A DNA stretch of 64,000 nucleotides from Candidatus Micrarchaeota archaeon (GCA_021812145.1 JAKAOM010000003.1:11737-75736); one strand, 5' to 3'; counted from the first letter of the stretch, positions 24,157-61,354 are shown. The notes: generated by a model from the sequence alone, not told the origin. A program made the numbers and translations.

Positions 24157-24190
24157 AACGCCGGCGGAGTGGGGTGCCAAGATTAATAAA
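24157..24190 (+). promoter_or_regulatory. Conserved motif copy a (AACGCCGGCGGAGTGGGGTG) plus TATA-like box ATTAATAAA, 24 nt upstream of the tnpB ATG
   Basis: Member of a 6-copy motif family (see findings). It follows a T7 run, and the motif-to-TATA offset is 25 bp. Confidence 0.5.
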
Positions 24191-24213
24191 CTCAAGTCAA
24201 CTTCAGTTAAATT

Positions 24214-25479
24214 ATGAAGGTTTATAAAACTTTAATTCAGAAGAACGCTCCTTCCAAAAGAGTGGAAGGTTTAATGAATTGTTTTAAAGAAATGGTGAAT
24301 TACAGCGTTAAAATTGCTTTAAACGAGAAGATAACTTCTAGGAATGCTTTGTCGAAAAGAGTTTATAAAAAGTTAAGCGGGAATTTTAAAGTTCCTAGCT
24401 ATTATTACGTGGAGAGCGTGAACAAAGCAATCGGAATAATCAAGAATTATAACAAGGTTTTGAGGAAAAGAGAAAACAAGAAGACTAGAGAAAAAAAAGA
24501 AGGATTTAAAAAAATTTTGTGGAAGGATTTAAGAAAACCTATTGTCAGAAAGCCTTTCCTCTCTTCTTACTTCGGCTTTAAAATCAAAAACAATCAATTA
24601 TTAATTCCTGTTGGCGTGAGGGATTTCGAAACGATTCCTTTGAATGATTATGTTCAATCTAAGCTTGAAGAAGAAGTTGAGGTGAGGAGTTTTACCATAA
24701 CGCCCAACAAGCTTTGTTTAACTATTGGCAAAACATTCAAACCAGTAGAGTGTTTAAACACTTTAGGTGTGGACAGAAACCTAAACAATGTTACAGTTGG
24801 AAATGAGAGTCACCACCTCGCTTTCGACTTGTCTTTAATTCCCAAAATAAAGAAAAGATATAGAAACAAACTGAAACACTTTCACAGAAACGATGTTAGG
24901 ATTAGAAGAAAGCTTTTCAGCAAGTATGGAAAAAGGGCATCCAATAGGGTAAAGCAGGTTTTGCATAAAACTTCGAAAATGATTGTTGAAAACGCTCTTC
25001 AAAGCAGGGAAGCTTTAGTTTTGGAGAATATTAAAGGTTTGAAAGATATTACTTTTAAAGGAGACGGCAAAAGCAAAAAGAAGAGGTTTTCTTTTCACAA
25101 CGCTTTCCCTTACTTTATGCTCGCCCAACAGTTAAAATACAAAGCTGAGTGGGATGGTTTGCAGATAATTCAGTTGTCAAGAAAGGAAACTAGAAACTCA
25201 AGCGTTCAGTGTTCGGTATGTGAGTGTGAAACTCGAATAGTTCCAGAACGGTTGGTTTTCTGCGAGAATTGCGGTTCTTTGTTTGATAGGGATGTGAATG
25301 CTTCGTTTAATATTGCGAAGCGGGGTCGGACAAGGCTGAAACGATCCTTCATTAATGAAAAAGGCTCTTCAGGTGAAGCGATGGTACTGGAACCCAATGA
25401 CCTTACAAAAGTAGGCGAGGCAGTCCAGCCAGTTGATGAGGAGAAGGAGTTTAAATCAAAAACATTAAACTGTTTTTGA
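24214..25479 (+). CDS. tnpB: TnpB-like (IS200/IS605 OrfB, RuvC + zinc ribbon) RNA-guided-nuclease-family protein; no tnpA present
   Basis: LGVDRNLNN (RuvC-I D), ALVLENIKGLK (RuvC-II E), CSVCECE..(11)..CENCG zinc ribbon and FDRDVNASFNIAKRG (RuvC-III D). Confidence 0.85.
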   Translation: MKVYKTLIQKNAPSKRVEGLMNCFKEMVNYSVKIALNEKITSRNALSKRVYKKLSGNFKVPSYYYVESVNKAIGIIKNYNKVLRKRENKKTREKKEGFKKILWKDLRKPIVRKPFLSSYFGFKIKNNQLLIPVGVRDFETIPLNDYVQSKLEEEVEVRSFTITPNKLCLTIGKTFKPVECLNTLGVDRNLNNVTVGNESHHLAFDLSLIPKIKKRYRNKLKHFHRNDVRIRRKLFSKYGKRASNRVKQVLHKTSKMIVENALQSREALVLENIKGLKDITFKGDGKSKKKRFSFHNAFPYFMLAQQLKYKAEWDGLQIIQLSRKETRNSSVQCSVCECETRIVPERLVFCENCGSLFDRDVNASFNIAKRGRTRLKRSFINEKGSSGEAMVLEPNDLTKVGEAVQPVDEEKEFKSKTLNCF

Positions 25480-25480
25480 C

Positions 25481-25810
25481 TTATTTACCAAAGCCATAAT
25501 CGTGCATTGGATTCTTCTTTCTCTTCATAAGCTCCTTCTGTATTTCCTTCAAATTGTCGTTTATGGCAAGGTTTGGCTCTCTGCTTGTTGTTTTTGCAAA
25601 AACCCTACCTCCTTTTTTAAGAGTCACTCCAGTCTCTATCTCGTAGTTTTCTTTCTTGCTGTGCAAGTTTACCTTAACGTGAACGTTTACGCTTTCGATT
25701 TCAATGCTTTTAACCTTTCCAATGGCGGCAGCTATTTTTTCTTTTATCGATTCAGAGTAGATAGTCCTGTCTCCAGTTATGTTTATTCTTTCAATCAAAT
25801 CAGAGTCCAT
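25481..25810 (-). CDS. HPF/RaiA (S30EA)-like ribosome-associated inhibitor homolog
   Basis: By eye the 109 aa align with bacterial HPF: INITG-----SIKEKIAAAIGKV, VNVHVKVNL, then LAINDNLKEIQKELMKRKK against AAIDGLIDKLARQLTKHKDK. Confidence 0.5.
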   Translation of the reverse strand: MDSDLIERINITGDRTIYSESIKEKIAAAIGKVKSIEIESVNVHVKVNLHSKKENYEIETGVTLKKGGRVFAKTTSREPNLAINDNLKEIQKELMKRKKNPMHDYGFGK

Positions 25811-25852
25811 AAATCATTTTTAAACACAATGATTTTTAAATGTTTTTAGTTT

Positions 25853-29311: not shown

Positions 29312-29312
29312 A

Positions 29313-48818: not shown

Positions 48819-48841
48819 AAAAACTAAAAAAACCAACCTCC

Positions 48842-48883
48842 AAAAACCTAGAAAACCCCTACCAACACACAGGCCTAAAACCA
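48842..48883 (+). repeat. 42-bp perfect direct repeat, copy B
   Basis: Identical to 47401-47442. Together the two copies bracket the AAA ATPase gene. Confidence 0.9.
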
Positions 48884-48926
48884 CTCAAATAAGAATTACA
48901 CTCCTTCTAAACTTCCCATCTTTTTT

Positions 48927-48960
48927 ACGCCGGCAGTGGGGGGCGCAAAAGCTTTTAAAC
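48927..48960 (+). promoter_or_regulatory. Conserved motif copy b (ACGCCGGCAGTGGGGGGCG) plus TATA-like CTTTTAAAC
   Basis: It follows a T6 run. It lies 89 nt upstream of the ATG at 49049. Confidence 0.45.
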
Positions 48961-49048
48961 TTAAAGAGAGCAAAATATAATTACATCGCTATCATCATCC
49001 TATCCTTGAAAAAAGAGGGGGGTCATGATAGTTTAAAAACCGATTCCT

Positions 49049-49576: not shown

Positions 49577-49580
49577 ACAA

Positions 49581-49603
49581 CCACCCCCTACACTGCCAGC
49601 GTC
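49581..49603 (-). promoter_or_regulatory. Conserved motif copy e, inverted (GACGCTGGCAGTGTAGGGGGTGG on the minus strand)
   Basis: On the minus strand it is preceded by a T6 run. It lies between convergent genes, so it is probably not acting as a promoter here. Confidence 0.4.
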
Positions 49604-49629
49604 AAAAAACAGTACGCCATCAAACATTT

Positions 49630-50196: not shown

Positions 50197-50277
50197 ACAA
50201 CTAAAACAAACAAAAATAAAAAACCAACACCCTCAAAAAAACAAACAAACACTAAAACAATATAAATAATCTAAACT

Positions 50278-50307
50278 CTAAATAGTAGTATCTCCTCTAC
50301 TATTTAG
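50278..50307. repeat. 11-bp perfect inverted repeat with 8-nt spacer
   Basis: CTAAATAGTAG-TATCTCCT-CTACTATTTAG. Confidence 0.85.
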
Positions 50308-50352
50308 TTATAATGGTAGCGACAAAACCGACAAAACCTCAGAGGTAAAAAT

Positions 50353-50414
50353 TGCGGGATAGTGCGGGATTCTGCGGGATACTCTAAACACTTTTGCGGG
50401 ATACTCTGCGGGAT
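50353..50414 (+). repeat. Iteron-like array: TGCGGGAT x5
   Basis: Copies start at 50353, 50363, 50373, 50395 and 50407. The first three are spaced exactly 10 bp apart, and copies 3 and 4 share CTGCGGGATACTCT / TTGCGGGATACTCT. Confidence 0.85.
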
Positions 50415-50418
50415 TCTC

Positions 50419-50438
50419 GACCCCAAACTGCCGGCATA
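50419..50438 (-). promoter_or_regulatory. Conserved motif copy f, inverted (GCCGGCAGTTTGGGGTC on the minus strand)
   Basis: This is the reverse complement of GACCCCAAACTGCCGGC. It directly abuts the iteron array. Confidence 0.4.
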
Positions 50439-50480
50439 ACCTCAGTAGGATTACATTTTAAAATCATTTAATACCATAGA

Positions 50481-52337
50481 ATGTTGAAGATGAGCAAGCA
50501 GTATAACCGATGCCAGAGGCATGGGTGTCACAACAGGGTTTCAAAGAAATGCAGGTTTTGCGGCAGGCTTTTCTGCGGTTATCACAGCACTCCAACACTT
50601 TGCTTAAATCCTAGAATGGTTCAAGAGGTCAAACAGTCGGATTATGAAAGGTATAAGAAGTATAACGAGGATTGGGATAGAAGGGACGGCCACCCCTGTA
50701 TGAAATACACTGAGTGGTGGAACTCAAACTATGAAAAAAACAAGGACTTGAAGTACGAGCAAACAAAAAAATCCCTGGACCACTTGTCACAAACACCAAC
50801 TTACAGCTTTCCAAGCAGGACAGAAATCATAAACCAGAATGAAAGCTATTACAACCCTCAAAAAGACTATAACCCGCCTTATGACAATAATCCTGAACGG
50901 GCGTACAAACCTGAGAATTATCACCCTCCAGAACGCAGCAGCAAGAATTATGAGGAAACAACCTCGAATAAGAAATTAATAACAGGGATTATTATTATAT
51001 TTTTAATTATGGTAGCAATTGCGGCTTTAACTTACTATTCCCAGAACGAGAGTTCAATAAACAAGGAAATAGGCTTGATGACTATAATAAAATGTTCTGA
51101 CAACACCACAAGCGGTTCTTGCTCTTTAAACCAGCCTTTTTACTGCAATAACGGAAAGTTGATATACAACGCTACCGAATGCGGCTGCCCTAGCAACACT
51201 ATCCTTGATTCAGGCTACTGCAGGCAGTACAAGAACTGCGCTGATTACACTAAAAGCGGTAACTGCTCTCAAACCAAACCATTATTCTGCTTTGATGGAA
51301 ACTTAACTGACAACGCTTCAACATGCGGTTGCGGGCCTGGTCAAATAGCTGATGGCGAAGATTGCAGACCAGTCATAAACTGCTCTGACGGAACTCCTGA
51401 CACGCAATGCTCAACAAACCAACCTTACTATTGTTTTAATGGAACTCTGGAACAAAAAGCGTCTTTATGCGGCTGCCCTGCATACCTGCAACAAAATGGA
51501 GATAACTGCACCAACCCCTACCCGTCTGACACAACGCGCTCATACTCATGGGAGTACGGAGGAAACACATATCAAATATCACTAAACCTTAGCAGCGATC
51601 TAGCAGCACAACTCGACCTAATACCAAATACTTACACAACAACCTTAGAACAGTATTTCAACTCCATAATAAACAACACCTACCAACAACTAGCAATCAA
51701 CGACATCATAAAACAAACAACTGGAAACGGAGACTATCAACTATTAAACGCGCTGGCCATGGTTCAAACCCTACCCTACGATTACACCTCCTACCAAAAC
51801 AGCGTTTTAAACCCCTCGCTGTCAGAAGCAAGATACCCTTACAGAACGCTGTATGATCAGACAGGTGTTTGCGAAGACAAAAGCCTTCTAGGCGCGGCGA
51901 TAGCAGAGCAGATGGGCTACGGCGTAGCATTATTTCAATACACTGCAGAAAACCATATGGCGCTAGGAATAAAATGCCCTACAGAACTCTCAAACTACAA
52001 CTCAGGATACTGCTTCCTAGAAATGACTACTCCCTGCAGCAAACTAACTTACAACGAAGGAAACTACACAGGAGGAATACAACTAACAAGCACGCCACAA
52101 ATAATAGTAATATCGGACGGAAAGAGCCTATCCTATCAAACAGTAGAAAACGCTATAACAGAAATAAACAACTACAAACAAGCATCAGACATGATGAGTC
52201 AACTACAAAACGAGATTTCAACATCCAACGTAAACCTCTACGATCCAAACAGCGTAAATCAATACAACGCTCTAGTAGACCAATACAACTACTATGTTAA
52301 AGTGTACAACACATTCAACAGCTGCAACACAACGTGA
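50481..52337 (+). CDS. AN1-like zinc finger / TM / 3x six-Cys repeat / transglutaminase-like (Cys-His) domain protein
   Basis: CQRHGCHNRVSKKCRFCGRLFCGYH, TM helix ITGIIIIFLIMVAIAALTYY, three ~48-aa repeats (C.D.T..G.CS...P.YC.NG.L...A..CGCP) and GVCEDKSLLGAAIAEQMGYGVALFQYTAENHMALG. Confidence 0.55.
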   Translation: MLKMSKQYNRCQRHGCHNRVSKKCRFCGRLFCGYHSTPTLCLNPRMVQEVKQSDYERYKKYNEDWDRRDGHPCMKYTEWWNSNYEKNKDLKYEQTKKSLDHLSQTPTYSFPSRTEIINQNESYYNPQKDYNPPYDNNPERAYKPENYHPPERSSKNYEETTSNKKLITGIIIIFLIMVAIAALTYYSQNESSINKEIGLMTIIKCSDNTTSGSCSLNQPFYCNNGKLIYNATECGCPSNTILDSGYCRQYKNCADYTKSGNCSQTKPLFCFDGNLTDNASTCGCGPGQIADGEDCRPVINCSDGTPDTQCSTNQPYYCFNGTLEQKASLCGCPAYLQQNGDNCTNPYPSDTTRSYSWEYGGNTYQISLNLSSDLAAQLDLIPNTYTTTLEQYFNSIINNTYQQLAINDIIKQTTGNGDYQLLNALAMVQTLPYDYTSYQNSVLNPSLSEARYPYRTLYDQTGVCEDKSLLGAAIAEQMGYGVALFQYTAENHMALGIKCPTELSNYNSGYCFLEMTTPCSKLTYNEGNYTGGIQLTSTPQIIVISDGKSLSYQTVENAITEINNYKQASDMMSQLQNEISTSNVNLYDPNSVNQYNALVDQYNYYVKVYNTFNSCNTT

Positions 52338-52341
52338 TTAT

Positions 52342-52923
52342 ATGCCAGACTTTAATTATTGGTCAAAAAGAGCAAAAAAATATGAAGATCCACTCTTTCA
52401 ATGGCTACTTTACGATCGTGTGCAAAATAAACTATTAACTTTTATAAAAACAAAACAGGAACCTAAGAAAATAATTGATATTGGTTGTGGAACTGGACGT
52501 TTACTGCGTAAAATAGAAAAAATATGGCCAAAAGCACAACTTATAGGTATTGACCCATCAGAAGGAATGATAGAAAAAGCAAAAAAACTCACGCCAAAAG
52601 CAAAATTTTACATTGCGAGGGCAGAATCTATACCACTACCTGATAATTCAGTTGACATGATTTTAAGCACACTTTCATTTCATCACTGGTCAGACCAACC
52701 TCAGGGAGTAAGCGAAATATGGCGAGTTTTGAAACCAAAAGGCCGATTATACATAGCAAATAAAACACTCCCAATATCTTTAAAACTATATTATATTTTA
52801 AAAGGAAAACCATACTACAAAGCAAAAAATATATTCAGTAAAGCTGGATTTAAAATAGAAATTAAAAAAATAAACTATATCTATATATTATTTAGAATAG
52901 AAATGATTATTGGAAAAAAATAA
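52342..52923 (+). CDS. Class I SAM-dependent methyltransferase
   Basis: IIDIGCGTGRLL (motif I), LIGIDPSEGMI, VDMILSTLSFHHW, LKPKGRLYIA. The ATG at 52342 is preferred over the upstream overlapping start. Confidence 0.85.
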   Translation: MPDFNYWSKRAKKYEDPLFQWLLYDRVQNKLLTFIKTKQEPKKIIDIGCGTGRLLRKIEKIWPKAQLIGIDPSEGMIEKAKKLTPKAKFYIARAESIPLPDNSVDMILSTLSFHHWSDQPQGVSEIWRVLKPKGRLYIANKTLPISLKLYYILKGKPYYKAKNIFSKAGFKIEIKKINYIYILFRIEMIIGKK

Positions 52924-53065
52924 AAAAGGTTACATTGTAAAAAGTAAACAATGAAAGATAAAAAAATTATATAAAATATGTTAAAGAATTTTCCTTATTT
53001 TTGGCGAATATTTTTTTAGAACATTCGAGTTCCGTTAAGTATTTAAATGTTGTTAAATAAACCAT

Positions 53066-53302
53066 TTGTTAGATTATGTTATGGTTGTAAATAATATGGA
53101 GTTACCACAAGTTAATATTATTGTAACTATTGTTTTAATTATTATCGTTGCCGGCATTACATATTTTGTGCAGCAAAACAGTTATGTGTCAAATATTTCA
53201 GCATTACAATTACAACAGAATAATTATATATTAAATATTTCAAATTTACAATCACAACTTAGTCAAACACAAAATCAACTACAAGCTTCAGTCAATAAAT
53301 GA
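53066..53302 (+). CDS. Small signal-anchored N/Q-rich protein
   Basis: TM helix VNIIVTIVLIIIVAGITYFV followed by Q/N/L repeats. It lies in a very AT-rich segment. Confidence 0.4.
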   Translation: MLDYVMVVNNMELPQVNIIVTIVLIIIVAGITYFVQQNSYVSNISALQLQQNNYILNISNLQSQLSQTQNQLQASVNK

Positions 53303-53349
53303 AAAATTTAATTATATACATTAGGCTATAATTTTTAGGTGTATTAAAT

Positions 53350-53694
53350 ATGGAAGAGAATATTGTTTTTGAATACATAAAATCAAAAAAAGAAATTACA
53401 TTTGTAGAATTGGAAGATTTTTGCAAAGAAAATAAATTTATAGAAGAAGACAAATACTTCCACTTATTAACTTTTAAAGAATACCAAAATGTGATTGCAT
53501 GGGAAAGTAAGAATAAGAAACTTATAGATATTACAACTTCATTACTAAACTCTAAAAAAATATCATTTAAAAGTTGTGGTATGTTTTTTTATCTAACAGA
53601 TGGCGTAGGTTTAGATATGCCAATAGCTAAAAAATTAAAAAATTATAAAGAACCACATTGGATACCATGCCTAATTTATGCAAATGTTGAATAA
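53350..53694 (+). CDS. Hypothetical protein (114 aa)
   Basis: ORF in the AT-rich island with no recognisable motif. Confidence 0.45.
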   Translation: MEENIVFEYIKSKKEITFVELEDFCKENKFIEEDKYFHLLTFKEYQNVIAWESKNKKLIDITTSLLNSKKISFKSCGMFFYLTDGVGLDMPIAKKLKNYKEPHWIPCLIYANVE

Positions 53695-54074
53695 AGTTAT
53701 CAAATGTTATAAATACTGTTAAATATTAAATATACTCTTTTTGAGAAAAACAAATACCTCTTGATGAAAAAGTGAAAGTTTTTAAAGTCAGGCTAGTTTT
53801 AATACTATAAGGGTGATTTGTTTTTTATGGCGCGTAAGAAAGAGAGTGTTTTAAGTTTTATTAAAAATAGGAGATTGTTATAGTTAGGGCTTAGTTTTTG
53901 GATAGGAGTTAGTTTGATGAGCATTTTTAATGTTTGGAAGATCAGCACTGATAAAAACGCGCTTTCTTATTCTTGGATCATGTTTTTCATCTCCGTAGTA
54001 GCCATCATTTTAGGCGGTTTTTACTGGGTTACTACAAATAAAAAATAATTCAACGTTAAATCAGAAAAAGAAAT

Positions 54075-54536
54075 CTAGTATTTTCCTTTGATTACGAAAA
54101 ACGAGCCTCGGATCGTTCCCGCCAGTTTGGATTTTTGCCTGGCGAACTTGAACTTTCCCAGCTCTTTTGGCACTTCCATTCCTTCAGAAAGCTTGAACCC
54201 GACAGCCCGCTTTTTAGGATCGTCAATCGTGTAAAGAACATTAACCCCAAGGCCGTCTTCGTAAAACACGTACGACCATTTGATGTTTTCCACTTGAAAA
54301 CTTGATGTTTCCAAAGGTTTTGCCGCGAATTCAATACCACGCTCTTCTTTCAATATTTTTTTAACATAATCAAGGGTCTTCCGGCCTTCTTTAGCAGGAA
54401 CAACAGTGAATTTATGATTGTACTTATTCATAAAATAACGGGCTTCATTGGCACGCAAGCCAGCAAGCGCTCTTGCCACAGGCGAGGATTCCAAGCCGAC
54501 AGTGGACACGTTCTTAAAATCAACTTCATACGCCAT
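54075..54536 (-). CDS. Hypothetical protein (153 aa)
   Basis: The internal ATG (MAYEVDF) is preceded by GGGTGG. Confidence 0.5.
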   Translation of the reverse strand: MAYEVDFKNVSTVGLESSPVARALAGLRANEARYFMNKYNHKFTVVPAKEGRKTLDYVKKILKEERGIEFAAKPLETSSFQVENIKWSYVFYEDGLGVNVLYTIDDPKKRAVGFKLSEGMEVPKELGKFKFARQKSKLAGTIRGSFFVIKGKY

Positions 54537-54704
54537 TTTCAACCACCCTTTATTTTTTTTAGGATTAAGGTATAAACAAACCAAGTATATATAATTATGT
54601 TTTTTTACTTACCCACAACCGTTCTAATAGTTTTCTTCATCTTCCTAGCATTCTTCCTACAAGAAGAAACCTTCCTTGAACTCTTCTTTCATTTACCTTA
54701 TTTT

Positions 54705-55457
54705 TTATGAAGGTTTGATCACGTTTTTGATTTCTTTTTCTTTGAAGCCAAGTTTTTTCAACTCTTTGAGTGTTTCAGAATGCGTTGTAACTTTTCTTTT
54801 TATTTCTGAGTACTTCTCTTTAATCATCTCTTTTTCATCAAGCTTTTGTAGTTTTTTAGTTATCGGCAAGGTTAAACCGTACTTTTTTTCCAGGTCCTCT
54901 AGCTGATTGTAAAGAGCACCGTAAAAAGGGCGTGTTCCGCTTTGATTCTCGCATTCTTTCAGTATAACATTCCAGTCGATTGTCGAACCGCGGATAATCA
55001 AATAAATATCATTAACGTCATCAGGACGTTCGGTGACGCCTTTAAAAAGAATCACATCTTCATTTGAAACTATCCTAACAGATAGTTTACCATAAACTTC
55101 GAGAAGCTGAGAACGTCGAACAATGCTTTTTGAGAGTTTAAGCGCGCCGCATACCGTTTCTATAAACAAGTCGAACCTGAAACCGTTCTTTTCAAGAAAA
55201 TTCGCCTCCATTCTACGGTAAGGCGTTTCGACTCTGACCGGCTCTTTAAAGCCCATCCGCCCTATGGCTTTTGTAAAAACGTCAAAATCCTTTGAGTTTT
55301 TTAGAATCAAGTCAAGATCCTTGGTAGCCGTTTTCTGGTCTCTGAACGCCATCGCGCCCCCTCCAACCATAAACACTTCCACACTTTCTTTCAGTAACCC
55401 TCCTATCTGCTTGAAAACCTCGTTCAAGTCGTCCTTTGTAAAACTTTTTCTAATCAT
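54705..55457 (-). CDS. Nucleotidyltransferase-fold protein, AbiEii-like toxin candidate
   Basis: VFMVGGGAMAFRDQKTATKDLDLIL fits the GG..(R)..DxD NTase core. Its start overlaps the upstream regulator stop by 4 bp. Confidence 0.5.
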   Translation of the reverse strand: MIRKSFTKDDLNEVFKQIGGLLKESVEVFMVGGGAMAFRDQKTATKDLDLILKNSKDFDVFTKAIGRMGFKEPVRVETPYRRMEANFLEKNGFRFDLFIETVCGALKLSKSIVRRSQLLEVYGKLSVRIVSNEDVILFKGVTERPDDVNDIYLIIRGSTIDWNVILKECENQSGTRPFYGALYNQLEDLEKKYGLTLPITKKLQKLDEKEMIKEKYSEIKRKVTTHSETLKELKKLGFKEKEIKNVIKPS

Positions 55458-56413
55458 CTTAACTCCAACTTCATTTTATCGTAAAACGCTACCTTTCTTC
55501 TTGTCTCATCAAACTCTTGCGCCACACCATACTCTTCTGCAATTTTTTTAAGTCTTTGAATGTTAAACCTGCCCTCATTCTTAGCAAAAAACAATTCAAG
55601 AACCAGAAGATCCTGCTGTTTAAGCTTGGCTAGCAAGAGAGCGTGAGCAAAAAAATCTTCTATAGTTAGCTCTTCTTTTTTCTCATCAAGATTGAAGTAA
55701 TAATCCCTGAACGAGGTTAGCGTTGCTTCCAAGCCTTTCTTGGCAAGCGCGCTCACACCGGTTTCAGAAAAGAACTCCGGAACTTTACCAGCAGTAGTTC
55801 TAACAATCGCGTGCTTTCTAACCCTAACCGAAGCGTTTTCAACACCCTCAAGCTTTTGCTGAATTAACAATTGAATATTATCAGCATAAGAAATCGCGAA
55901 CGAGTACACCAAACTATCTGAAACAATAATGGAATTGTTCTTCTTTTGAATCAAGCCCGCGCCTTCAAGCCTTCGCAAAACCTTGTAAAGAGTCGTTTTA
56001 GAACAACCAGCTTCTTTTAAAAGAACTTCCATGCTGGTTCCCTCCTCTTTTCCAAAACCCAGAACACCAAGCATTGAACCCTGATGGTGTGATATTATCT
56101 GATGCGCGTCTCCAATGGCGCTGACCAAAACGCTCAAAGCAAAACCTGAAAGAAAACCTTCTATATTAGAGCCAGGCCTTGAATCTGAAAGGATTTTGAA
56201 AGTTTGAGCATGCCCGGCAATAGAAAGTCTCACTGTTTTTCTAACCCCCTGCTTTTCTGTTAACACCAAACCTTTCTCATTTAAGTCTTTTAAAACGCGT
56301 GACAAAAAACTTCTCTTAACGCCCAACCGCCATGCCAAAGCTCCAGCCGACCACTCTTTCTGGCAAACCAACCGAAGAACCCTAATCTCTATTTCACTTA
56401 ATTTAAACTTCAT
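55454..56413 (-). CDS. Double winged-helix transcriptional regulator, AbiEi-like antitoxin candidate
   Basis: Two wHTH segments: AGALAWRLGVKRSFLSRVLKDLNEKGLV and LLKEAGCSKTTLYKVLRRLEGAGLI. Confidence 0.55.
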   Translation of the reverse strand: MKFKLSEIEIRVLRLVCQKEWSAGALAWRLGVKRSFLSRVLKDLNEKGLVLTEKQGVRKTVRLSIAGHAQTFKILSDSRPGSNIEGFLSGFALSVLVSAIGDAHQIISHHQGSMLGVLGFGKEEGTSMEVLLKEAGCSKTTLYKVLRRLEGAGLIQKKNNSIIVSDSLVYSFAISYADNIQLLIQQKLEGVENASVRVRKHAIVRTTAGKVPEFFSETGVSALAKKGLEATLTSFRDYYFNLDEKKEELTIEDFFAHALLLAKLKQQDLLVLELFFAKNEGRFNIQRLKKIAEEYGVAQEFDETRRKVAFYDKMKLELR

Positions 56414-56604
56414 ATATTAAAATTAGTTAATAATACATTAATAAAGTTAACTATTATTTATAAAAAACATTTATAAATGTTTATATTGCAATATATATTT
56501 GTTGGAGATAACTGCAGTTTTTTACTGAAGTGAAAAACCCTGTCTTTTGAATAGCAAACATTTAAATACTTAATTAATTATTAATATATTAGAGGGCGAT
56601 TAAC

Positions 56605-56787
56605 ATGACAAACCTATATTTTAAAGGAGTTGGAATCGGGCTTGTAATAGCTTGGGTTACAACCTTCCTAGCTTACTGGCTGCAAAGCAAGGGAATAAAG
56701 CACACAAAAATTCCCATACCAACCGCGCTCATACTGTTAGAGATAGTGTTAAGCGTGATATTCCTCGCAGTATCATTTTTAACATAA
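56605..56787 (+). CDS. Small 2-TM membrane protein upstream of arsR-family gene
   Basis: 60 aa with two hydrophobic helices. It ends 12 nt before the arsR-like start. Confidence 0.4.
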   Translation: MTNLYFKGVGIGLVIAWVTTFLAYWLQSKGIKHTKIPIPTALILLEIVLSVIFLAVSFLT

Positions 56788-56798
56788 CGTGATAATCA

Positions 56799-57107
56799 AT
56801 GGGAACAGTGTGGAAGGCTTTAGCAGACGACAGCCGCAGACAAGTTTTGCTCATGCTCATAGAAGGCGAGATGACCCCCAGCGAAATGGCAGCCAAGTTT
56901 AACTTCACCATGCCGGCCCTATCCACCCACCTAAAAATTCTAAGAGACGCTGGACTAATAGTAGAACGCAGGGAGGGAAAGAGAAGGCTCTACTCGCTAA
57001 ACGCCAACGGCATGAACGAACTATTCGAATTCGTGGACTCGTTCTGGGCCTACCCGCTGCACAACCTAAAAAACTACTTCAAAGGCAGAGCGAAACACAA
57101 GGAATGA
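56799..57107 (+). CDS. ArsR/SmtB-family winged-helix regulator
   Basis: ALADDSRRQVLLML..GEMTPSEMAAKFNFTMPALSTHLKILRDAGLIVERREGKRRLYSL. Confidence 0.85.
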   Translation: MGTVWKALADDSRRQVLLMLIEGEMTPSEMAAKFNFTMPALSTHLKILRDAGLIVERREGKRRLYSLNANGMNELFEFVDSFWAYPLHNLKNYFKGRAKHKE

Positions 57108-57240
57108 TTTTTCTCTAAAGGCAGCGAATTACAAGAAAAACCACAAAAAATATGGAATTTCAAGAAAAAACCATACGAATGAATGAAGTTTTAAAAAAAA
57201 ATAATTACAAAAAAATGATTTAACGCCGGCAGTGAGGGGT
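57051..57240 (+). repeat. Repeat R1 (~190 bp): last 57 nt of the arsR-like gene plus downstream region ending in motif copy c
   Basis: Near-identical to 61145-61338 apart from a few substitutions and A-run length changes. The left part also matches 59290-59391. Confidence 0.85.
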
Positions 57241-57256
57241 TGAAAGATTTATAAAC
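57222..57256 (+). promoter_or_regulatory. Conserved motif copy c (AACGCCGGCAGTGAGGGGT) plus TATA-like ATTTATAAAC
   Basis: The motif-to-TATA offset is 25 bp. It lies 82 nt upstream of the ATG at 57338. Confidence 0.5.
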
Positions 57257-57337
57257 ACTGAAAAGTAGATTTATAATAACGAAGAGAGGCCCTCATCTCT
57301 TTTTGCATGCCTCTGCCCTTGAAAAAGGTGAACATGT

Positions 57338-57652
57338 ATGAATACATACGCTGAAATTAAAATAAAAAGCAGGATATCCGAAAACCTGGCCACGCGAGAG
57401 TCAGCCGACAGCTTCTTTAACACGATAGAAAAACTACGCGCAGAAAAAATAATCGTCAACTTCTCAGGTGTGACGTTCATGTCAAGATCTTTCGCCCACC
57501 AGTACCTAACAAGAGAGAAAGAATCAAACAAACAGATAACAAACACTCACGAGCCAAAAGAAGTTAAAAAAATGCTTGAATTGGTAAAAGAATCAAAAAA
57601 CGCTCCTGCCATACACTTCAACACAGGCAGGATAGCCGCCCTGCATTTGTAA
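57338..57652 (+). CDS. STAS-like DUF4325-type protein
   Basis: LATRESADSFFNTIEKL...KIIVNFSGVTFMSRSFAHQYL matches the DUF4325 pattern (tR..a......v.lDF.gV..is.SFadE). Confidence 0.5.
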   Translation: MNTYAEIKIKSRISENLATRESADSFFNTIEKLRAEKIIVNFSGVTFMSRSFAHQYLTREKESNKQITNTHEPKEVKKMLELVKESKNAPAIHFNTGRIAALHL

Positions 57653-57812
57653 AAATCTTCCATGAAATCTAAACCACAAACTAAAACAGGAAAAGTTTCA
57701 AAAAACTACCTCAAAAAGCTTGAGAGGATACGCAAGGGAAAGTTCACAAGAGTGAAAAGCTTCGCAAAACAATACAAAAACCAGCATTAAACGATAAATT
57801 AATTTTTTATTT

Positions 57813-57986
57813 TTACCAGTACGCCTTGTTGGCCCAGATGAAAAAACCTATCAATACAATCAAAACTAAAAATAACACCATCACCGCGCTCAACCCTATA
57901 TACCACCAAATCGCTGGAAAAGCGACGACTATTGCTATTGCAGTGAGGATGAATTGAGCTTTTTTGCCAGGATCATCATTTAACAT
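57813..57986 (-). CDS. Unlisted 57-aa 2-TM protein
   Basis: MLNDDPGKKAQFILTAIAIVVAFPAIWWYIGLSAVMVLFLVLIVLIGFFIWANKAYW. It falls below the track cutoff. Confidence 0.3.
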   Translation of the reverse strand: MLNDDPGKKAQFILTAIAIVVAFPAIWWYIGLSAVMVLFLVLIVLIGFFIWANKAYW

Positions 57987-58141
57987 TTTTCAACAAACAA
58001 ATTATGGTTGAATATATTAAAAATGTTTTTACACCGCTTAACAAATATACACAAGTAAGAAACACTCTAAGCTTTGGATTTAATAGCAAAAATATAATAA
58101 ACACAAACAACATAACTATTATTTGTAAGGTGATGCTATTC

Positions 58142-58375
58142 ATGAAGAGATATTTTAGAGTGATCATAGAAAAGGATGAGGACGGGGTTTACATTGCAAC
58201 AGTGCCTGAACTGCCTGGATGCGTTTCTGACGGCAAAACAAGAAGGGAAGCGCTTACAAACGTCAAGGAAGCAATATCAGGCTATCTGGAAACACTAAAA
58301 GACATGAATTGGACTATGCCTAAAATTGTAGGGGTGGACAGGGTGCTGGTGAACGTAAATGCCGCACCTGCCTAA
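58142..58375 (+). CDS. hicB: HicB-family antitoxin
   Basis: YFRVIIEKDEDGVYIATVPELPGCVSDGKTRREALTNVKEAISGYLE. Confidence 0.8.
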   Translation: MKRYFRVIIEKDEDGVYIATVPELPGCVSDGKTRREALTNVKEAISGYLETLKDMNWTMPKIVGVDRVLVNVNAAPA

Positions 58376-58580
58376 CGTTTCCGCCTCTAAAGTCATAAAA
58401 GCCCTTTGCAAGATAGGCTATGTTTTCAACAGGCAGAAAGGAAGCCACATAATACTAGTAAACCCAGAAAGACACAAAATAGCCGTAATTCCAAACCGCA
58501 AGGAAATACCCACAGGAACGCTAAGAGCAATAATAAACGAAGCAGGCCTCACGGTTGAAGAATTCCTAAAACTATTATAA
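58359..58580 (+). CDS. hicA: HicA-family mRNA-interferase toxin
   Basis: SASKVIKALCKIGYVFNRQKGSHIILVNP...IPNRKEIPTGTLRAIINEAGLTVEEF. It overlaps hicB by 17 nt. Confidence 0.85.
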   Translation: MPHLPNVSASKVIKALCKIGYVFNRQKGSHIILVNPERHKIAVIPNRKEIPTGTLRAIINEAGLTVEEFLKLL

Positions 58581-58587
58581 AAATAAT

Positions 58588-58642
58588 TTACACAAGTAAG
58601 AAAAACTCGGTTCTTATAAAAAAAGAGGCTTTGTGTAAGTAA
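58588..58642 (+). repeat. 55-nt imperfect-palindrome element X1 downstream of hicA
   Basis: TTACACAAG ... CTTTGTGTAA form 9 bp with one bulged T. About 70% identical and colinear to 62088-62142. Confidence 0.6.
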
Positions 58643-58678
58643 TTCAGAAAATCGGTGATTACTTGCACAGAAAAGCGA

Positions 58679-59206
58679 TTATTTAAGCAGGTTTTTCATT
58701 ACTTCTGGCATGGATTGTTTCACCTGTTTTTTGACCTGCAATTTAGTGAACAGGTCTTTGAGTTCTTGCTCGTTATCTGCTTCTATTTCAAGTGATGGGC
58801 GATATTTTTCTATATCCTCAATGAACACGCGGTTTTTTCCTAACTGGTACTGCCACCCTTGCCGTGAAAATTCAAACCCAAAATCAAAATCTTTGCCTAA
58901 CTCTTTTTCAATAAAATTCAGCGCTTCTTTTTCAGTATCAAATTCTTTCCTTAAGGCGACTTTGTCTATTTTGCCTATCTTTTGAAACTCGGTCTTTTTT
59001 CTAACCAGGATAACGTTTTTTGTGTTCCAGTTGTTTTTGGAAAGAACTCGCACTCTTAAGAAGTCGTCCGTTAGATTGTATGTTTCTTTCCTGGGAACAA
59101 AAATTATGTCTTTAAAGGCATAATTGCTTTTGAAAACGCCGCCAAGACCCTCAACTTTTTGCCGAGCAATTTCAACACTTTCTATTATCCCCCTGCCTTC
59201 AATCAT
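58679..59206 (-). CDS. CYTH-like (class IV adenylate cyclase / triphosphatase fold) protein
   Basis: DDFLRVRV, then RQGWQYQLGKNRVFIEDIEKYRPSLEIEA, resembles CyaB/CYTH (alRiR ... K.R..y....v.lD.v.glG.f.EiE). Confidence 0.45.
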   Translation of the reverse strand: MIEGRGIIESVEIARQKVEGLGGVFKSNYAFKDIIFVPRKETYNLTDDFLRVRVLSKNNWNTKNVILVRKKTEFQKIGKIDKVALRKEFDTEKEALNFIEKELGKDFDFGFEFSRQGWQYQLGKNRVFIEDIEKYRPSLEIEADNEQELKDLFTKLQVKKQVKQSMPEVMKNLLK

Positions 59207-59289
59207 ACAAATATTTTGGGTAAGGAAGTTTAATTAAAGTTTAGAACTGTACACTTTTCCCTCATGGCTCCCCCCTTGCATCACTCCGG

Positions 59290-59391
59290 AACGGCATGAA
59301 CGAACTATTCGAATTCATAGACGCGTTCTGGGCTTACCCCCTGCACAACCTAAAAAACTACTTCAAAGGCAGAGTGAAACACGAAGACTAA
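59290..59391 (+). pseudogene. Orphan copy of the arsR-like gene 3' end (repeat R2)
   Basis: Encodes NGMNELFEFIDAFWAYPLHNLKNYFKGRVKHED*, against NGMNELFEFVDSFWAYPLHNLKNYFKGRAKHKE* in 56799..57107. No upstream HTH part is present. Confidence 0.8.
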
Positions 59392-59485
59392 AAAATAGCA
59401 AAACTAAAAAAACCTGAACGGAAAACCTTAAATACAACCTTAATCTTAAAATAAGAAAGTAAGAATTATAGAAAAGGTGATTCAA

Positions 59486-59761
59486 ATGAACGTGGAGATG
59501 ATAAGAATGTCTTCAAAAGGCCAGATAGTGATACCTCAAGACATAAGGCAGTATGTCAGCGCGGGAGAAGGAACGGCTTTCGCCGTCATAGGAAGCAAGG
59601 ACACCATAGTGCTTAAAAAGATAGAAATGCCTTCCAAAGAATCTCTAATAAAAGAACTCAAAACAATGGCTGAAGAAGGAAGCAGAAGAATGAAAAAACT
59701 AGGCATAAAAGAAGAAAACGTCAACTCAATCATACACAAAAGAAGGTTAAAACAGCAATGA
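59486..59761 (+). CDS. AbrB/SpoVT-family antitoxin
   Basis: IRMSSKGQIVIPQDIRQYV. AGGTGA lies 8 nt upstream of the ATG at 59486. Confidence 0.8.
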   Translation: MNVEMIRMSSKGQIVIPQDIRQYVSAGEGTAFAVIGSKDTIVLKKIEMPSKESLIKELKTMAEEGSRRMKKLGIKEENVNSIIHKRRLKQQ

Positions 59762-60159
59762 AAGTAGTTTTCGACACCAACGTGCTTATATCATCAACAA
59801 TATTTGACAAAAGCGAAGCTCAGAAACTATTATTCAAGCTTATTCAACTTGAAATTCCAATCTTCTCATCAACGCAGATATTAGAAGAATATCAAAACGT
59901 GCTGAAAAGAGACTTCAAATACTCTGACGAAGAAACTGCAAACATCACAAAAAAGATGCTGTCCTTTCTGACACTTGTAGAATCAAATCAGAAAATCAAC
60001 CTCATAGAAGAAGACCCAGATGACAACAAAATCATTGAATGCGCTGTGGCGTCAAACTCCGATTTTATCGCCACCTACGACCCGCACCTGATCAAAATCA
60101 AGAAATATTGCGAAATAAGAATAATAACGCCCACAGATATGAGAAGATTGCTAAAATAG
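59758..60159 (+). CDS. PIN-domain toxin
   Basis: MKVVFDTNVLISS.., later EDPDDNKIIECA and FIATYD. 4-bp overlap with the antitoxin gene. Confidence 0.85.
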   Translation: MKVVFDTNVLISSTIFDKSEAQKLLFKLIQLEIPIFSSTQILEEYQNVLKRDFKYSDEETANITKKMLSFLTLVESNQKINLIEEDPDDNKIIECAVASNSDFIATYDPHLIKIKKYCEIRIITPTDMRRLLK

Positions 60160-60193
60160 AAACGCACTCGCGTAGTAAATAAGCGCAAACTTT

Positions 60194-60224
60194 ACAAAAA
60201 CATGGAATTTCAAGCAAAACCATG
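60194..60224 (+). repeat. Short copy (R2') of the central hairpin of repeat R
   Basis: ACAAAAACATGGAATTTCAAGCAAAACCATG, against ACAAAAAATATGGAATTTCAAGAAAAAACCATA in R1. Confidence 0.6.
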
Positions 60225-60300
60225 CTAAATAATTGTTGCTTTTTGGGTTTTAATGCATAATTTTTTAATCCAGTTCGATTCTAATATTTGATGATTTGTT

Positions 60301-60639
60301 ATGGTTGAAGTTAGGAATAAGAGAAGTGGTGTTGATGAGGCTGCGTATTTGAACGCTGCTCATTTGAAGCTTGCCGGCGCTGATCATAAGGTTATAGCTA
60401 ATTATTTGAACGCGAGGCATGGCCATGAGAGTATTGCCCTGGCGTTGCACAAGGTTGGTTTTGGCGAGGAAAAGATAATTTCGGCGTTGAACCAGAAAGA
60501 GCTTGGCCTGACCAACGCTGACAAAGCGAGAAGCTTAAGCATGCTCGTTGATAATTACAAGGACTTGCGTTTTAAAAAGATAGGAAAGGAGATAGAAAAA
60601 CTTAAAACCAAGCGGGTTTCAGGTTTAAAGCAAAGGTGA
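60301..60639 (+). CDS. Orphan protein, paralog 1 of a tandem pair
   Basis: YLNAAHLKLAGADHKVIANYLNARHGHESIALALHKVGFGEEKIISALNQKELGLTN aligns with the next ORF. Confidence 0.5.
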   Translation: MVEVRNKRSGVDEAAYLNAAHLKLAGADHKVIANYLNARHGHESIALALHKVGFGEEKIISALNQKELGLTNADKARSLSMLVDNYKDLRFKKIGKEIEKLKTKRVSGLKQR

Positions 60640-60645
60640 TTGTTT

Positions 60646-61089
60646 ATGGCGAGAGGCGGGATAGATGAATCGTTTTTTAGAGGTTTTGGTAAGCGTAATG
60701 TTGATCCTTTGGAACACTCACCGCGCGGCTCTGGCACCAAAGCTGAGAAAGCTTTTCACTCGCCGGAGGACGAGCATGACTTGAAGAAAATGGAGCTTAA
60801 AAAAATAAACTCGACACTAGACGCGTCCCATCTTAAAGCTGTCGGAGCTAATCACAAAATGATAGCCGCTTTTTTGAACATGAAGTACGGCCACGAGTAC
60901 ATTCCCTGGGCGTTGTACAAAGCAGGTTTCAGCGAAAGAAAAATCATCTCGGCAATAAACCAAAGAAAACTAGGGCTAAGCAACACAGAAAAAATGAGAA
61001 GCCTACACAAACTACGCACCGACTGGTACCTACCACTAGAAAAAATAGACAAAGAAATAAGAAAACTAGGACGACAAAACCAACCATAA
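60646..61089 (+). CDS. Orphan protein, paralog 2 of a tandem pair
   Basis: LDASHLKAVGANHKMIAAFLNMKYGHEYIPWALYKAGFSERKIISAINQRKLGLSN. It has an extra ~45-aa N-terminus. Confidence 0.5.
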   Translation: MARGGIDESFFRGFGKRNVDPLEHSPRGSGTKAEKAFHSPEDEHDLKKMELKKINSTLDASHLKAVGANHKMIAAFLNMKYGHEYIPWALYKAGFSERKIISAINQRKLGLSNTEKMRSLHKLRTDWYLPLEKIDKEIRKLGRQNQP

Positions 61090-61144
61090 AAAAAAGATTT
61101 TAGTTCATACTAAAAAAACACTCGTTTTTGAGAAAAAAGAGAAT

Positions 61145-61338
61145 TACCCGCCACACAACCTAAAAAACTACTTCAAAGGCAGAGTGAAACACAAAGAATG
61201 ATTTTTATCTAAAGGCAGCGAATTCCAATAAAAAACCACCAAAAATATGGAATTTCAAGAAAAAATCATACGAATGAATTAAGTTTTAAAAAAAAAATAA
61301 TTACAAAAAAAATGCTTTAACGCCGGCAGTGTGGGGTG
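61145..61338 (+). repeat. Repeat R3 (~194 bp): 18-codon arsR-like 3' remnant plus downstream region ending in motif copy d
   Basis: YPPHNLKNYFKGRVKHKE* followed by sequence colinear with 57108-57240. Confidence 0.85.
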
Positions 61339-61354
61339 CTAGGATTTAAATATT
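61319..61354 (+). promoter_or_regulatory. Conserved motif copy d (AACGCCGGCAGTGTGGGGTG) plus TATA-like ATTTAAATATT
   Basis: The offset is 25 bp. The box lies ~24-30 nt upstream of the ATG at 61376. Confidence 0.5.

Follow-up and report, generated by a model that had tools for sequence, protein, structure and literature searches.

Regulatory sites that directly abut the upstream side of the BRE are familiar from several archaeal promoters, among them those of Ptr2 in Methanocaldococcus and TFB-RF1 in Pyrococcus and the ara-box in Sulfolobus. The described system most similar to the one considered here is the 20-nt GvpE UAS, which immediately precedes the BRE of haloarchaeal gvp (gas-vesicle) promoters (PMC2241852). 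The GvpE UAS and a 19-base GC-rich motif that we analyzed in Candidatus Micrarchaeota, AACGCCGGCAGTGNGGGGT, share the layout of a conserved element of ~20 nt placed directly before the BRE, at fixed spacing and orientation, and in a subset of promoters only. The Micrarchaeota motif differs in that it is unrelated in sequence and lacks the two repeated 8-nt portions or dyad, its candidate regulon is made up of mobile and accessory genes and takes in an insertion element's own promoter, and its host is an uncultured Micrarchaeota. While BRE-adjacent elements are well known in other archaea, no such element is described for this lineage. Promoters borne on insertion sequences (ISs) offer a further comparison, in that one form of the Micrarchaeota promoter module lies inside a tnpB element and drives its sole gene and others precede unrelated host or accessory genes; however, the copies not linked to tnpB have no flanking IS ends, so that a plain IS insertion ahead of a gene does not account for them.

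Gene regulation in DPANN archaea such as Micrarchaeota is almost entirely unexplored, and a sharply defined 19-bp element common to an insertion-element promoter, a DNA methyltransferase gene, a toxin-antitoxin-like operon and other island genes would define a first candidate regulon of the mobile part of the genome. Here, we examine the motif in a contiguous stretch of 64,000 nucleotides (hereafter the window) and in related contigs, and weigh explanations for its distribution. A regulatory site specific to the lineage is the most likely reading of the motif, in preference to a transposon end or a recombination site.

Motif copies and promoter geometry

The preliminary description had reported a six-copy motif, and the repeat is real: five copies with at most three mismatches to AACGCCGGCAGTGNGGGGT occur in the window against 0.00 expected from shuffles, and the sixth carries four mismatches. 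At that looser threshold, block shuffles yield 0.15 matches per window, and this minus-strand copy, weak alone, is plausible in its context. Matches with five mismatches fall within coding regions, have no TATA box and look like chance. Five further copies lie beyond the window: this genome and a related MAG have two each, and the fifth is located 3.9 kb after its end. The copies and their promoter elements are as follows.

24148–24156, plus strand: additional 5′ half-site CACGCTGGC, which repeats the first 9 nt of the motif in tandem and is preceded by a T run at 24139–24147
24157–24175, plus strand: motif copy AACGCCGGCGGAGTGGGGT in the tnpB-A promoter, 2 mismatches
24176–24190, plus strand: spacer GCCAAGA and TATA box TTAATAAA; tnpB ATG at 24214
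48926–48944, plus strand: motif copy TACGCCGGCAGTGGGGGGC, 2 mismatches, upstream of a 175-aa gene (49049–49576)
48945–48960, plus strand: spacer GCAAAAGC and TATA box TTTTAAAC, followed by a ~70-nt leader that includes a further TATA-like box and an SD-like GAGGGGGG
49585–49603, minus strand: weak inverted copy GACGCTGGCAGTGTAGGGG, 4 mismatches, with an upstream T run and a TATA-like TTTAATTG (49570–49577) 7 nt downstream
50420–50438, minus strand: degenerate inverted copy TATGCCGGCAGTTTGGGGT, 3 mismatches; on its own strand iterons come next and there is no TATA box
57222–57240, plus strand: perfect copy upstream of a STAS-like (DUF4325) gene (57338–57652)
57241–57255, plus strand: spacer TGAAAGA and TATA box TTTATAAA
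61319–61337, plus strand: perfect copy upstream of a two-gene operon (61376–61720 and 61717–62073)
61338–61352, plus strand: spacer GCTAGGA and TATA box TTTAAATA; ATG at 61376
L127:9944, same genome: perfect copy at a second tnpB paralog (tnpB-B), positioned as in tnpB-A
L132:2152, minus strand: copy 3.9 kb beyond the window end
L129:12423, related MAG: good match upstream of a D12 DNA methyltransferase gene
Related MAG: diverged copy upstream of tnpB-C

Across the copies, positions 5, 7–9 and 16–18 are invariant, positions 2–4, 10 and 11 each deviate in one copy, position 14 accepts all four bases and the ends (positions 1 and 19) are loose, a substitution profile that looks like that of a protein-binding site. 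The only dyad is the 6-bp GCCGGC, and alignment of the flanks is possible only within subfamilies of copies.

The relation of the motif to the TATA box is close to uniform. Within the ~105 kb of lineage DNA examined, in which ten sites underlie the enrichment at accessory genes, a TATA box starts 7–8 nt past the motif end in 7 of 10 copies, TATA-like boxes are likewise placed in two more, and motif orientation relative to the box is the same in all seven TATA-linked copies. In the window, the boxes at 24183, 57248 and 61345 start 7 nt after the motif end and that at 48953 starts 8 nt after it (26–27 nt from the motif start), which bears out the constant offset originally noted for the plus-strand copies. 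A TTWWWAW start is expected by chance within a 3-nt window with a probability of 0.018 per site, and four such placements in four sites would occur with a probability of ~1e-7 if the copies were independent, which is not fully true. The T/A-rich run said to precede each plus-strand copy fared less uniformly: T runs are clear at 24139–24147 and 48921–48925, but the copies at 57222 and 61319 have only TTT after A-rich sequence.

The spacers between motif and TATA box (GCCAAGA, GCAAAAGC, TGAAAGA, GCTAGGA, GCGAATA and GCAAAGA) are BRE-like, so that a purine- or A-rich BRE directly precedes the box as in archaeal BRE/TATA promoters; generic promoters of the lineage are likewise enriched in A at −7 to −3 relative to the start of the box. 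Exactly 31 nt separate the TATA start from the ATG of tnpB-A (24214), of tnpB-B and of the gene at 61376, and TATA starts across 130 lineage genes peak at −30/−31. The 31-nt spacing is the general leaderless geometry of the lineage, and the motif promoters display the fixed TATA-to-start-codon distance of leaderless archaeal promoters, in agreement with the leaderless-type transcripts that had been proposed for the ATGs at 24214 and 61376. The motif, on the other hand, is not part of that general geometry. In 56 TATA-aligned lineage promoters the positions corresponding to it are unconserved, and it is confined to promoters of accessory genes; with no conservation of the motif in ordinary TATA-aligned promoters, a general promoter element was rejected. 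A conserved element of ~20 nt that abuts the BRE at fixed spacing and orientation in a promoter subset only matches the layout of a GvpE-UAS-like UAS or operator.

We favor, with a probability of roughly 0.6, the explanation that the motif is the binding site of a putative factor acting beside TFB/TBP, carried within a portable promoter module of ~45 bp. The module would read, in order, a T/A run (in some copies), AACGCCGGCAGTGNGGGGT, a purine-rich BRE of 7–8 nt and the TATA box; its orientation follows that of the box, and it has leaderless spacing and marks a small promoter subclass of mobile and accessory genes. A sequence-specific DNA-binding protein would occupy the 19-mer, immediately next to the BRE-bound TFB on its upstream side, and would aid or impede recruitment of TBP/TFB; the predicted location of the site, at about −38 to −56 relative to the start of transcription, would favor activation. 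The motif-bearing genes would then form a "mobilome" regulon, and the module may spread as a unit, both inside the inverted-repeat-bounded tnpB element and by recombination in a hypervariable island, which would account for orphan copies that point into convergent genes. Points against this explanation include a dyad limited to GCCGGC, which is unusual for dimeric wHTH regulators, and the two or three copies that have no convincing downstream gene. Of the roles raised in the preliminary description, both an operator for a dedicated regulator and a portable promoter module find support in the abutment of the motif on BRE/TATA, its fixed spacing and orientation, the leaderless or short-leader genes that it precedes, its absence from generic promoters and its recurrence with unrelated flanks and in a second MAG. 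The regulatory-site reading is a sequence-based prediction for an uncultured organism, and the 19-mer could serve as direct bait for the putative regulator; candidate binders encoded nearby are an ArsR protein (56799–57107), a TrmB-like protein (55454–56413) and the product of 61376–61720. The motif also helps to locate promoters and leaderless start codons in these genomes, and its case illustrates how tnpB elements may carry a promoter module with them.

Genomic distribution of the motif

The genes behind motif promoters comprise three tnpB genes, the D12 DNA methyltransferase gene, a putative toxin-antitoxin operon, the STAS-like gene and other island genes. No core gene carries the motif, including those in 21 kb of core genes of a close relative, and the empty tnpB site in that relative is also free of it. 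The principal elements surrounding the copies are the following.

24067–25495, plus strand: tnpB-A element, 1429 bp, with the motif internal and the tnpB ORF at 24214–25479
24067–24084 and 25478–25495: 18-bp terminal inverted repeats of tnpB-A, flanked by a 10-bp direct repeat (8/10 identical)
57006–57221, plus strand: 3′ end of an ArsR-family gene and intergenic DNA, repeated at 61140–61318 (~89% identity) and partly at 59290–59387

In all three tnpB elements examined, the motif occupies the same internal position, 72–90 nt inside the left inverted repeat; in tnpB-A, the extra half-site begins 81 nt inside that repeat. This half-site, CACGCTGGC, is common to tnpB-A and the tnpB-C copy of the other MAG. 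A possible stem, CGCTGGC-AAC-GCCGGCG, exists only in tnpB-A; tnpB-C has a weaker form and tnpB-B has none. The TnpB proteins of the two MAGs are only 74% identical, and yet the motif is kept in both. Comparison with the flanks of other tnpB copies, as had been recommended, showed the motif before tnpB-B and tnpB-C; a more distant tnpB (contig L146) has neither motif nor inverted repeats.

The remaining copies in the window lie in an island whose content differs between strains (L139/L140 vs the window) and which contains duplicated gene 3′ ends (59290–59387, 61140–61197 and 47400–47445/48841–48886). The copy at 57222 shows no difference among the strain contigs L138, L139 and L140. Two to three of the ten copies have no convincing downstream gene (the minus-strand copies ending at 49603 and 50438 and the copy 3.9 kb beyond the window), one of them in inverted orientation with respect to its nearest TATA box. 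The 49585–49603 copy sits between convergent genes, with no convincing gene downstream. On the plus strand, the 50420–50438 copy ends 16 nt before the TATA box (50455–50463) of a 618-aa gene (50481–52337). The two inverted copies do bracket an ORF (49630–50196) and five WATCCCGCA iterons (50353–50415), as first described, but the NTase label given to that ORF is unsupported by Pfam, NCBIfam, PHROGs and PDB. The statement that all copies mark boundaries of accessory cassettes holds insofar as they lie in accessory DNA; the association with boundaries is only loose, and several cassettes between 57.3 and 61.3 kb have no motif. Searches of Pfam, PHROGs, NCBIfam and PDB returned nothing for most island proteins, including the supposed wHTH and RelE-like proteins, and a search for terminal inverted repeats around an IS4-like transposase found none that were convincing.

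In wider searches, ACGCCGGCAGTGNGGGG gave chance matches in GC-rich bacteria of a genome collection and one Aenigmatarchaeota contig without promoter context, and a scan of a viral collection for the motif gave chance matches only. In metagenomes, TTTWACGCCGGCAGTGNGGGG had no match and CGCCGGCAGTGNGGGGN{8,10}TTWWWAW had five, all judged to be chance (two in bacterial-looking ORFs, one in a GC-rich contig and two that are one sequence). None of these scans was exhaustive, as the motif-bearing JGI contig L139 was not returned. Three other Micrarchaeota loci reached through ArsR homologs have no motif, and no mention of the motif sequence or of the assembly was found in the literature.

Alternative explanations

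One rival explanation is that the ~45-bp segment is simply one strong promoter copied by recombination or by a tnpB element, with no dedicated regulator and with the 19-mer kept by recent descent or serving as a generic upstream or insulating element (through extended TFB/TBP contact or DNA structure). Island and tnpB promoters are alike beyond the motif: the 23 nt past the 57222 motif agree at 20/23 positions with the tnpB-C promoter of the related MAG, the 61319 copy with its flanks is 24/24 identical to the tnpB-B promoter TTTAACGCCGGCAGTGTGGGGTGC, four copies have the identical TATA variant TTWATAAAC, and the flanks of the 175-aa gene match the 5′ coding region of tnpB-B in a 14-nt exact stretch and a 19/20 stretch. 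From the BRE/TATA similarity it follows that the fixed spacing may partly reflect common descent of the module rather than selection, and passive spread fits the orphan copies between convergent genes. We nevertheless regard copying without a regulator as unlikely, since substitutions are uneven (the 19-mer is near-invariant except at positions 1, 14 and 19, and BRE/TATA and flanks vary freely), since the motif is retained across the protein divergence between the two MAGs and before unrelated genes, and since generic promoters do without such an element. Less probable still is that the 19-mer, with its GCCGGC core, is a crossover point at which promoters and cassettes are swapped in the island, whether by a site-specific process or through anchoring by microhomology. 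The partners of flank homology do change at the motif: the copies at 57222 and 61319 have ~200 nt in common upstream and not downstream, the ArsR 3′-end repeat stops at or just past the motif, and the downstream side of one copy and the motif edge of the other are common with tnpB-C and tnpB-B, respectively. Strain differences and duplicated gene 3′ ends in the island point the same way, and crossovers there would exchange the upstream context and the downstream cassettes, thereby explaining the change of partners, the orphan copies and the presence of the module in both tnpB elements and the island. Against this, among the ORFs of the ~22-kb island (47–69.5 kb) that were covered by Pfam scans or precomputed hits, no integrase or recombinase was found apart from one IS4-type DDE transposase; there is no inverted-repeat or attC-like hairpin architecture; sites are fewer than cassettes, with several operons and zero motif copies in the 4 kb from 57240 to 61319; and the copies inside tnpB elements lie at no junction. 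The ArsR 3′ fragment at 59290, a diverged allele without the motif, points to ordinary homologous recombination anchored in genes. On whether presence/absence polymorphisms are bounded by the site the picture is mixed: flank homologies switch at the motif, and strain contigs break at other repeats. The recombination core site proposed in the preliminary description is not supported, and there is only a slim chance that the motif belongs to an integrase-independent or yet-unrecognized cassette-shuffling system of DPANN archaea.

Two readings that tie the 19-mer to TnpB itself are weaker again. That it is a terminal or sub-terminal left-end recognition sequence of tnpB elements, with the other copies as relics of decayed elements, is very improbable. 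As at the left end of IS200/IS605 (IS1341-type) elements, the motif lies upstream of tnpB in the three elements examined, at one internal position, and short tnpB-like fragments flank the 175-aa gene. Unlike such an end, it is non-terminal and has no conserved sub-terminal hairpin. The real element ends are the inverted repeats with their 9–10-bp target duplications, and the repeat consensus is restricted to the termini of the tnpB elements and does not occur around other motif copies. Seven of ten copies are not tnpB-linked and have neither an inverted-repeat relic nor a tnpB pseudogene nearby, tblastn of the island found no tnpB remnants, and the distant tnpB of L146 has neither motif nor repeats; the left-end role suggested at the outset is refuted. 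Hardly credible is the alternative in which the 19-mer is a target of RNA-guided TnpB, or of a nuclease-dead TnpB-like regulator, that reads TTTA plus ~18 nt. With its ~19 nt and a TTT(A/T) in front, the motif looks like a target with its TAM, and tnpB is present in the genome, but the likeness goes no further; a partial copy, complementary or identical, occurs neither beside a tnpB 3′ end nor in an ncRNA-like context, half-motif matches (≤2 mismatches) are either known copies or isolated, several of them inside genes, Rfam identifies tRNA only, and free variation at just one position (14) is more in keeping with protein contacts than with base pairing.

Several known architectures were also compared. 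Like integron attC sites, the motif is a short repeat in an array of small, toxin-antitoxin-rich accessory cassettes at which flank homologies change; however, no integrase was found, the R''-L''/L'-R' inverted-repeat structure is missing, there is not one site per cassette, and attC sites mark cassette 3′ ends whereas the motif is promoter-linked on the 5′ side of genes. ORB and mini-ORB sites combine a short dyad with a GGGGT G-string, and the motif is similar in its length of ~20 nt, its short dyad, its 3′ GGGGT and the location of one copy beside an iteron cluster. It differs in dyad sequence and spacing, in having no adjacent orc1/cdc6 and no inverted pair around an AT-rich unwinding region, and in that most copies abut TATA boxes of genes; an origin recognition box was rejected, as the copies flank genes and no Orc1/Cdc6 domain appears among the island ORFs scanned or precomputed. 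Also rejected were a tRNA-derived att site (the sole tRNA is at 13566), an opposite-strand terminator, and a MITE or TIR element around each copy, the inverted-repeat consensus being found at tnpB element ends only.

IS200/IS605 elements are by definition devoid of inverted repeats and target duplications (PMC13565253, PMC4810608). The tnpB elements described here, whose ends match GGCTTTGGGACAWAARTC, have 18-bp inverted repeats and 9–10-bp target duplications, and are in both respects atypical for that family.

Motif sites and promoter architecture

We read the motif, a GC-rich 19-nt sequence upstream of TATA boxes, as a lineage-specific factor-binding element that would form the 5' half of a portable BRE/TATA promoter module, a reading to which we assign a probability of about 0.6. 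Searched as AACGCCGGCAGTGNGGGGT with at most three mismatches, it occurs at five sites in the window, none being expected from 100 shuffles of the window:

24157, plus strand
48926, plus strand
57222, plus strand
61319, plus strand
50420-50438, minus strand

Each of the four plus-strand copies is followed, after 7 or 8 nt, by the start of a TATA box (TTAATAAA, TTTTAAAC, TTTATAAA, TTTAAATA), and the ATGs at 24214 and 61376 each lie 31 nt from the TATA start. With sites, spacing and ATG distances all recovered, the preliminary description of copies, boxes and start codons proved correct, save that the sixth of its six copies (49585-49603, minus strand) has four mismatches to AACGCCGGCAGTGNGGGGT and is weak on its own, since block shuffles at up to four mismatches yield 0.15 sites per window. 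Window matches with five mismatches lie inside coding sequence, without TATA boxes, and were treated as chance.

Genes were called crudely in the window and three related loci (L127, L129, L133), and the upstream regions of these 130 genes were aligned. TATA-like heptamers show a sharp maximum at -30/-31 relative to the start codon, the predicted signature of leaderless transcripts, and 56 of the 130 genes have one between -40 and -22; because of this peak, leaderless mRNAs seem to predominate in this lineage of Micrarchaeota. For some genes the start seems to have been called too far 3', as with the L129 methyltransferase (12531, vs a GTG near 12481-12490). Positions immediately 5' of the aligned TATA boxes are A-rich, as a BRE would be; no conservation was found further upstream, at the motif's place, in these TATA-aligned promoters, among which the motif occurs in accessory-gene promoters only. 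Since the 7-8-nt spacers past the motif (GCCAAGA, TGAAAGA, GCAAAGA etc.) fit a BRE, the motif would span ~-38 to -56 from the inferred start, directly 5' of the place of TFB binding. The motif-bearing genes 49049 and 57338 differ in having ~70-nt leaders, together with an SD-like sequence and another TATA-like box. On these sequence grounds, the motif-linked sites are predicted promoters.

Ptr2 and TFB-RF1 sites and the ara-box are among the archaeal elements that abut the BRE. The motif would work like such upstream activating sequences, although it has no sequence in common with them, and is here a candidate regulator-binding site. The 20-nt GvpE UAS is the clearest such case (PMC2241852).

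Genes behind the motif and its distribution

Ten motif copies are known in ~105 kb of the lineage. The genes behind motif promoters are:

tnpB (Pfam PF07282), three copies: tnpB-A in the window (ORF 24214-25479), its paralog tnpB-B (L127) and tnpB-C (L129)
D12 methyltransferase gene, L129 contig
57338, STAS-like DUF4325 protein gene
49049, gene for a 175-aa protein without assigned function
two-gene operon, toxin-antitoxin-like in look, for which no family match was found
618-aa cysteine-rich protein gene, possible only: motif inverted, 16 nt upstream of a TATA box

The motif was found neither at core genes of L127, L129 and the window up to 47 kb (ribosomal-protein, FtsZ, tRNA-synthetase and others) nor in 21 kb of core genes from a close relative, whose FtsZ falls in the same 90% cluster.

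In the same genome, tnpB-B (protein 87% identical) has a perfect motif in the same place as tnpB-A, its promoter running T run, AACGCCGGCAGTGTGGGGT, GCGAATA, TTAATAAA, with the ATG 31 nt past the TATA start. In a related MAG (GCA_964388435.1), tnpB-C (74% identical) follows a diverged motif, GACGCTGGCAACACTGGCAAGATAGGGT, then TGGAAGA TTTATAAA, and a second, good copy on that contig, CGCGCCGGCAGTGCGGGGT, then GCAAAGA TTTTTAAG, lies upstream of the D12 gene. A Logan contig reaching 5.5 kb past the window adds GACGCCGGCAGTGGGGGGG, then TGCTAAGG, then TTTGAATA, with convergent genes on either side. Behind this orphan copy, ~3.9 kb beyond the window end, a 41-aa GTG ORF (L132, 2094-1969, minus strand) begins 31 nt past a TATA-like box, the lineage's leaderless spacing, and overlaps the 3' end of the convergent 326-aa gene, and could encode a small protein or mark an antisense transcript.

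The genome, viral and metagenome collections scanned, incomplete for the lineage in that the motif-bearing JGI contig L139 was not among the matches, yielded chance matches only. Nor was the motif found in ArsR-containing loci from three further Micrarchaeota (GC 0.41-0.51), in which the ArsR gene adjoins a copper ATPase or other genes. For these reasons the motif seems restricted to a narrow clade, with no tie to ArsR. The host genome is that of a low-GC (~0.40) DPANN-type archaeon, and exact protein matches assign the window to MAG GCA_027320585.1 as well as to ENA/Logan assemblies from that organism. Labels read Micrarchaeota/Micrarchaeaceae for close homologs of the window's ArsR-family protein and 'Marsarchaeota' for members of the host's FtsZ cluster; the window holds a single tRNA (Rfam and ARAGORN).

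The tnpB elements

Alignment of the three tnpB loci delimits elements of ~1.43 kb:

window, 24067-25495
L127, 9862-11296
L129, 9829-11282

Each ends in 18-bp inverted repeats (GGCTKTGGGACAWAARTC), outside which lie direct repeats of 9-10 bp (perfect, CATCAATGC, in L129; 8/10 in the window; 7/9 in L127); the close relative's FtsZ-phosphorylase intergenic region is without the element. Inverted repeats and target duplication conflict with the definition of IS200/IS605/IS1341 elements, which lack both (PMC13565253, PMC4810608), and suggest that the tnpB gene is carried by a non-autonomous element of DDE type that moves by cut-and-paste. The motif starts 72-90 nt inward of the left repeat and is thus part of an internal tnpB promoter; comparison with the flanks of the other tnpB copies, as earlier proposed, found it internally in the L127 and L129 elements too. 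The repeat consensus was found nowhere but at tnpB element ends, and tblastn found no tnpB remnants in the hypervariable accessory region from 47 kb to past the window end (the island), so that a role as the left end of TnpB-type elements is rejected. A more distant tnpB (L146; 59% identity across roughly half its length) has neither motif nor inverted repeats.

Copying, recombination and the island

Some of the promoters have more than the 19-mer in common: past the motif at 57222, 20 of 23 nt agree with the tnpB-C promoter; the 61319 copy agrees with tnpB-B at 24/24 nt; and the 48926 flanks hold two stretches resembling the tnpB-B 5' coding region, one of 14 nt matching exactly and one matching at 19/20. 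Sites 57222 and 61319 also have ~200 nt upstream in common (ArsR gene 3' end and intergenic sequence) and diverge right past the motif. Because so much is shared, the module has apparently been copied as a unit, flank homologies switching partner at the motif. Around 48926 the tnpB-B-like matches (48899-48912 and ~49022-49040) lie on either side in permuted order, the 19/20 match including a dead ATG ATA GTT TAA, a hint that this promoter may derive from a rearranged tnpB 5' region.

Unit copying is also what purely passive spread, with no factor, would leave. Substitutions within the module, however, are uneven: motif positions 5, 7-9 and 16-18 are unchanged in 10/10 copies, each of positions 2-4, 10 and 11 differs in a single copy, all four bases occur at position 14 among the ten, and BRE/TATA vary within functional limits. 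Since the pattern in the 19-mer looks like that of a protein-binding site, a factor-binding site in a portable module is favoured over passive copying. Partner switching would suit a site-specific recombination site, the core site proposed earlier, but this is unlikely and found no support: the scanned or precomputed island ORFs include no integrase or recombinase and, as their sole transposition gene, that of an IS4-type DDE transposase; hairpin architecture is lacking in the motif; and long stretches holding several operons have no copy. The motif failed the tests for an IS200/IS605 end, attC site, MITE, origin box and guide-RNA target; for the last of these, neither the surroundings of tnpB 3' ends nor non-coding sequence held a complementary or duplicate half-motif. 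The operator and portable-promoter roles raised in the preliminary description explain the data best, given a motif that abuts BRE/TATA, is confined to accessory-gene promoters and is copied with its module, which would mark mobile and accessory genes, including by a promoter inside tnpB elements.

The island is hypervariable; it begins at 47 kb and extends to 69.5 kb or further. Its genes (47000-64000, and contig L147 to ~69.5 kb) include:

AAA_14/DUF4143 ATPase
DUF6036 nucleotidyltransferase with TrmB-like regulator
ArsR
STAS-like gene
HicAB
AbrB-like/PIN-like pair (no family match)
CYTH-like gene
IS4-type transposase

Fragments of the ArsR 3' end at 61140-61197 and 59290-59387 (the latter from a diverged allele and lacking the motif), a 46-nt repeat (47400-47445 / 48841-48886) on either side of the ATPase gene, and gene content past the STAS gene that differs between strains (strain contigs L139/L140 carry other genes there) fit homologous recombination anchored in conserved genes.

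Directly past the degenerate motif copy, upstream of ORF 49630-50196, lie five WATCCCGCA iterons (50353-50415, minus strand; spaced 10-22 nt apart; unique in the window, 0.57 expected); no replication protein was recognisable nearby, the 618-aa neighbour being a cysteine-rich membrane protein. Two related ~58-nt inverted-repeat elements (58586-58645 and 62085-62141; TTACACAAG ... CTTTGTGTAA) stand just past the HicA and RelE-like genes, with looser relatives in L139 and at 61097-61140. The right arm of these elements, GGCTTTGTG.., is similar to the tnpB element terminal repeat; possible roles are as terminators, MITE-like relics or cassette-end sites. A 38-nt tandem repeat (63413-63500; 2.3 copies, TTCTACTTAGAAT in each) separates the IS4-type transposase gene from a 55-aa ORF. 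Tandem paralogous genes at 60301-60639 and 60640-61089 (112 and 149 aa, no known domain) belong to a lineage-specific multi-copy island family, since a third paralog occurs in strain variants (L139/L140 ends).
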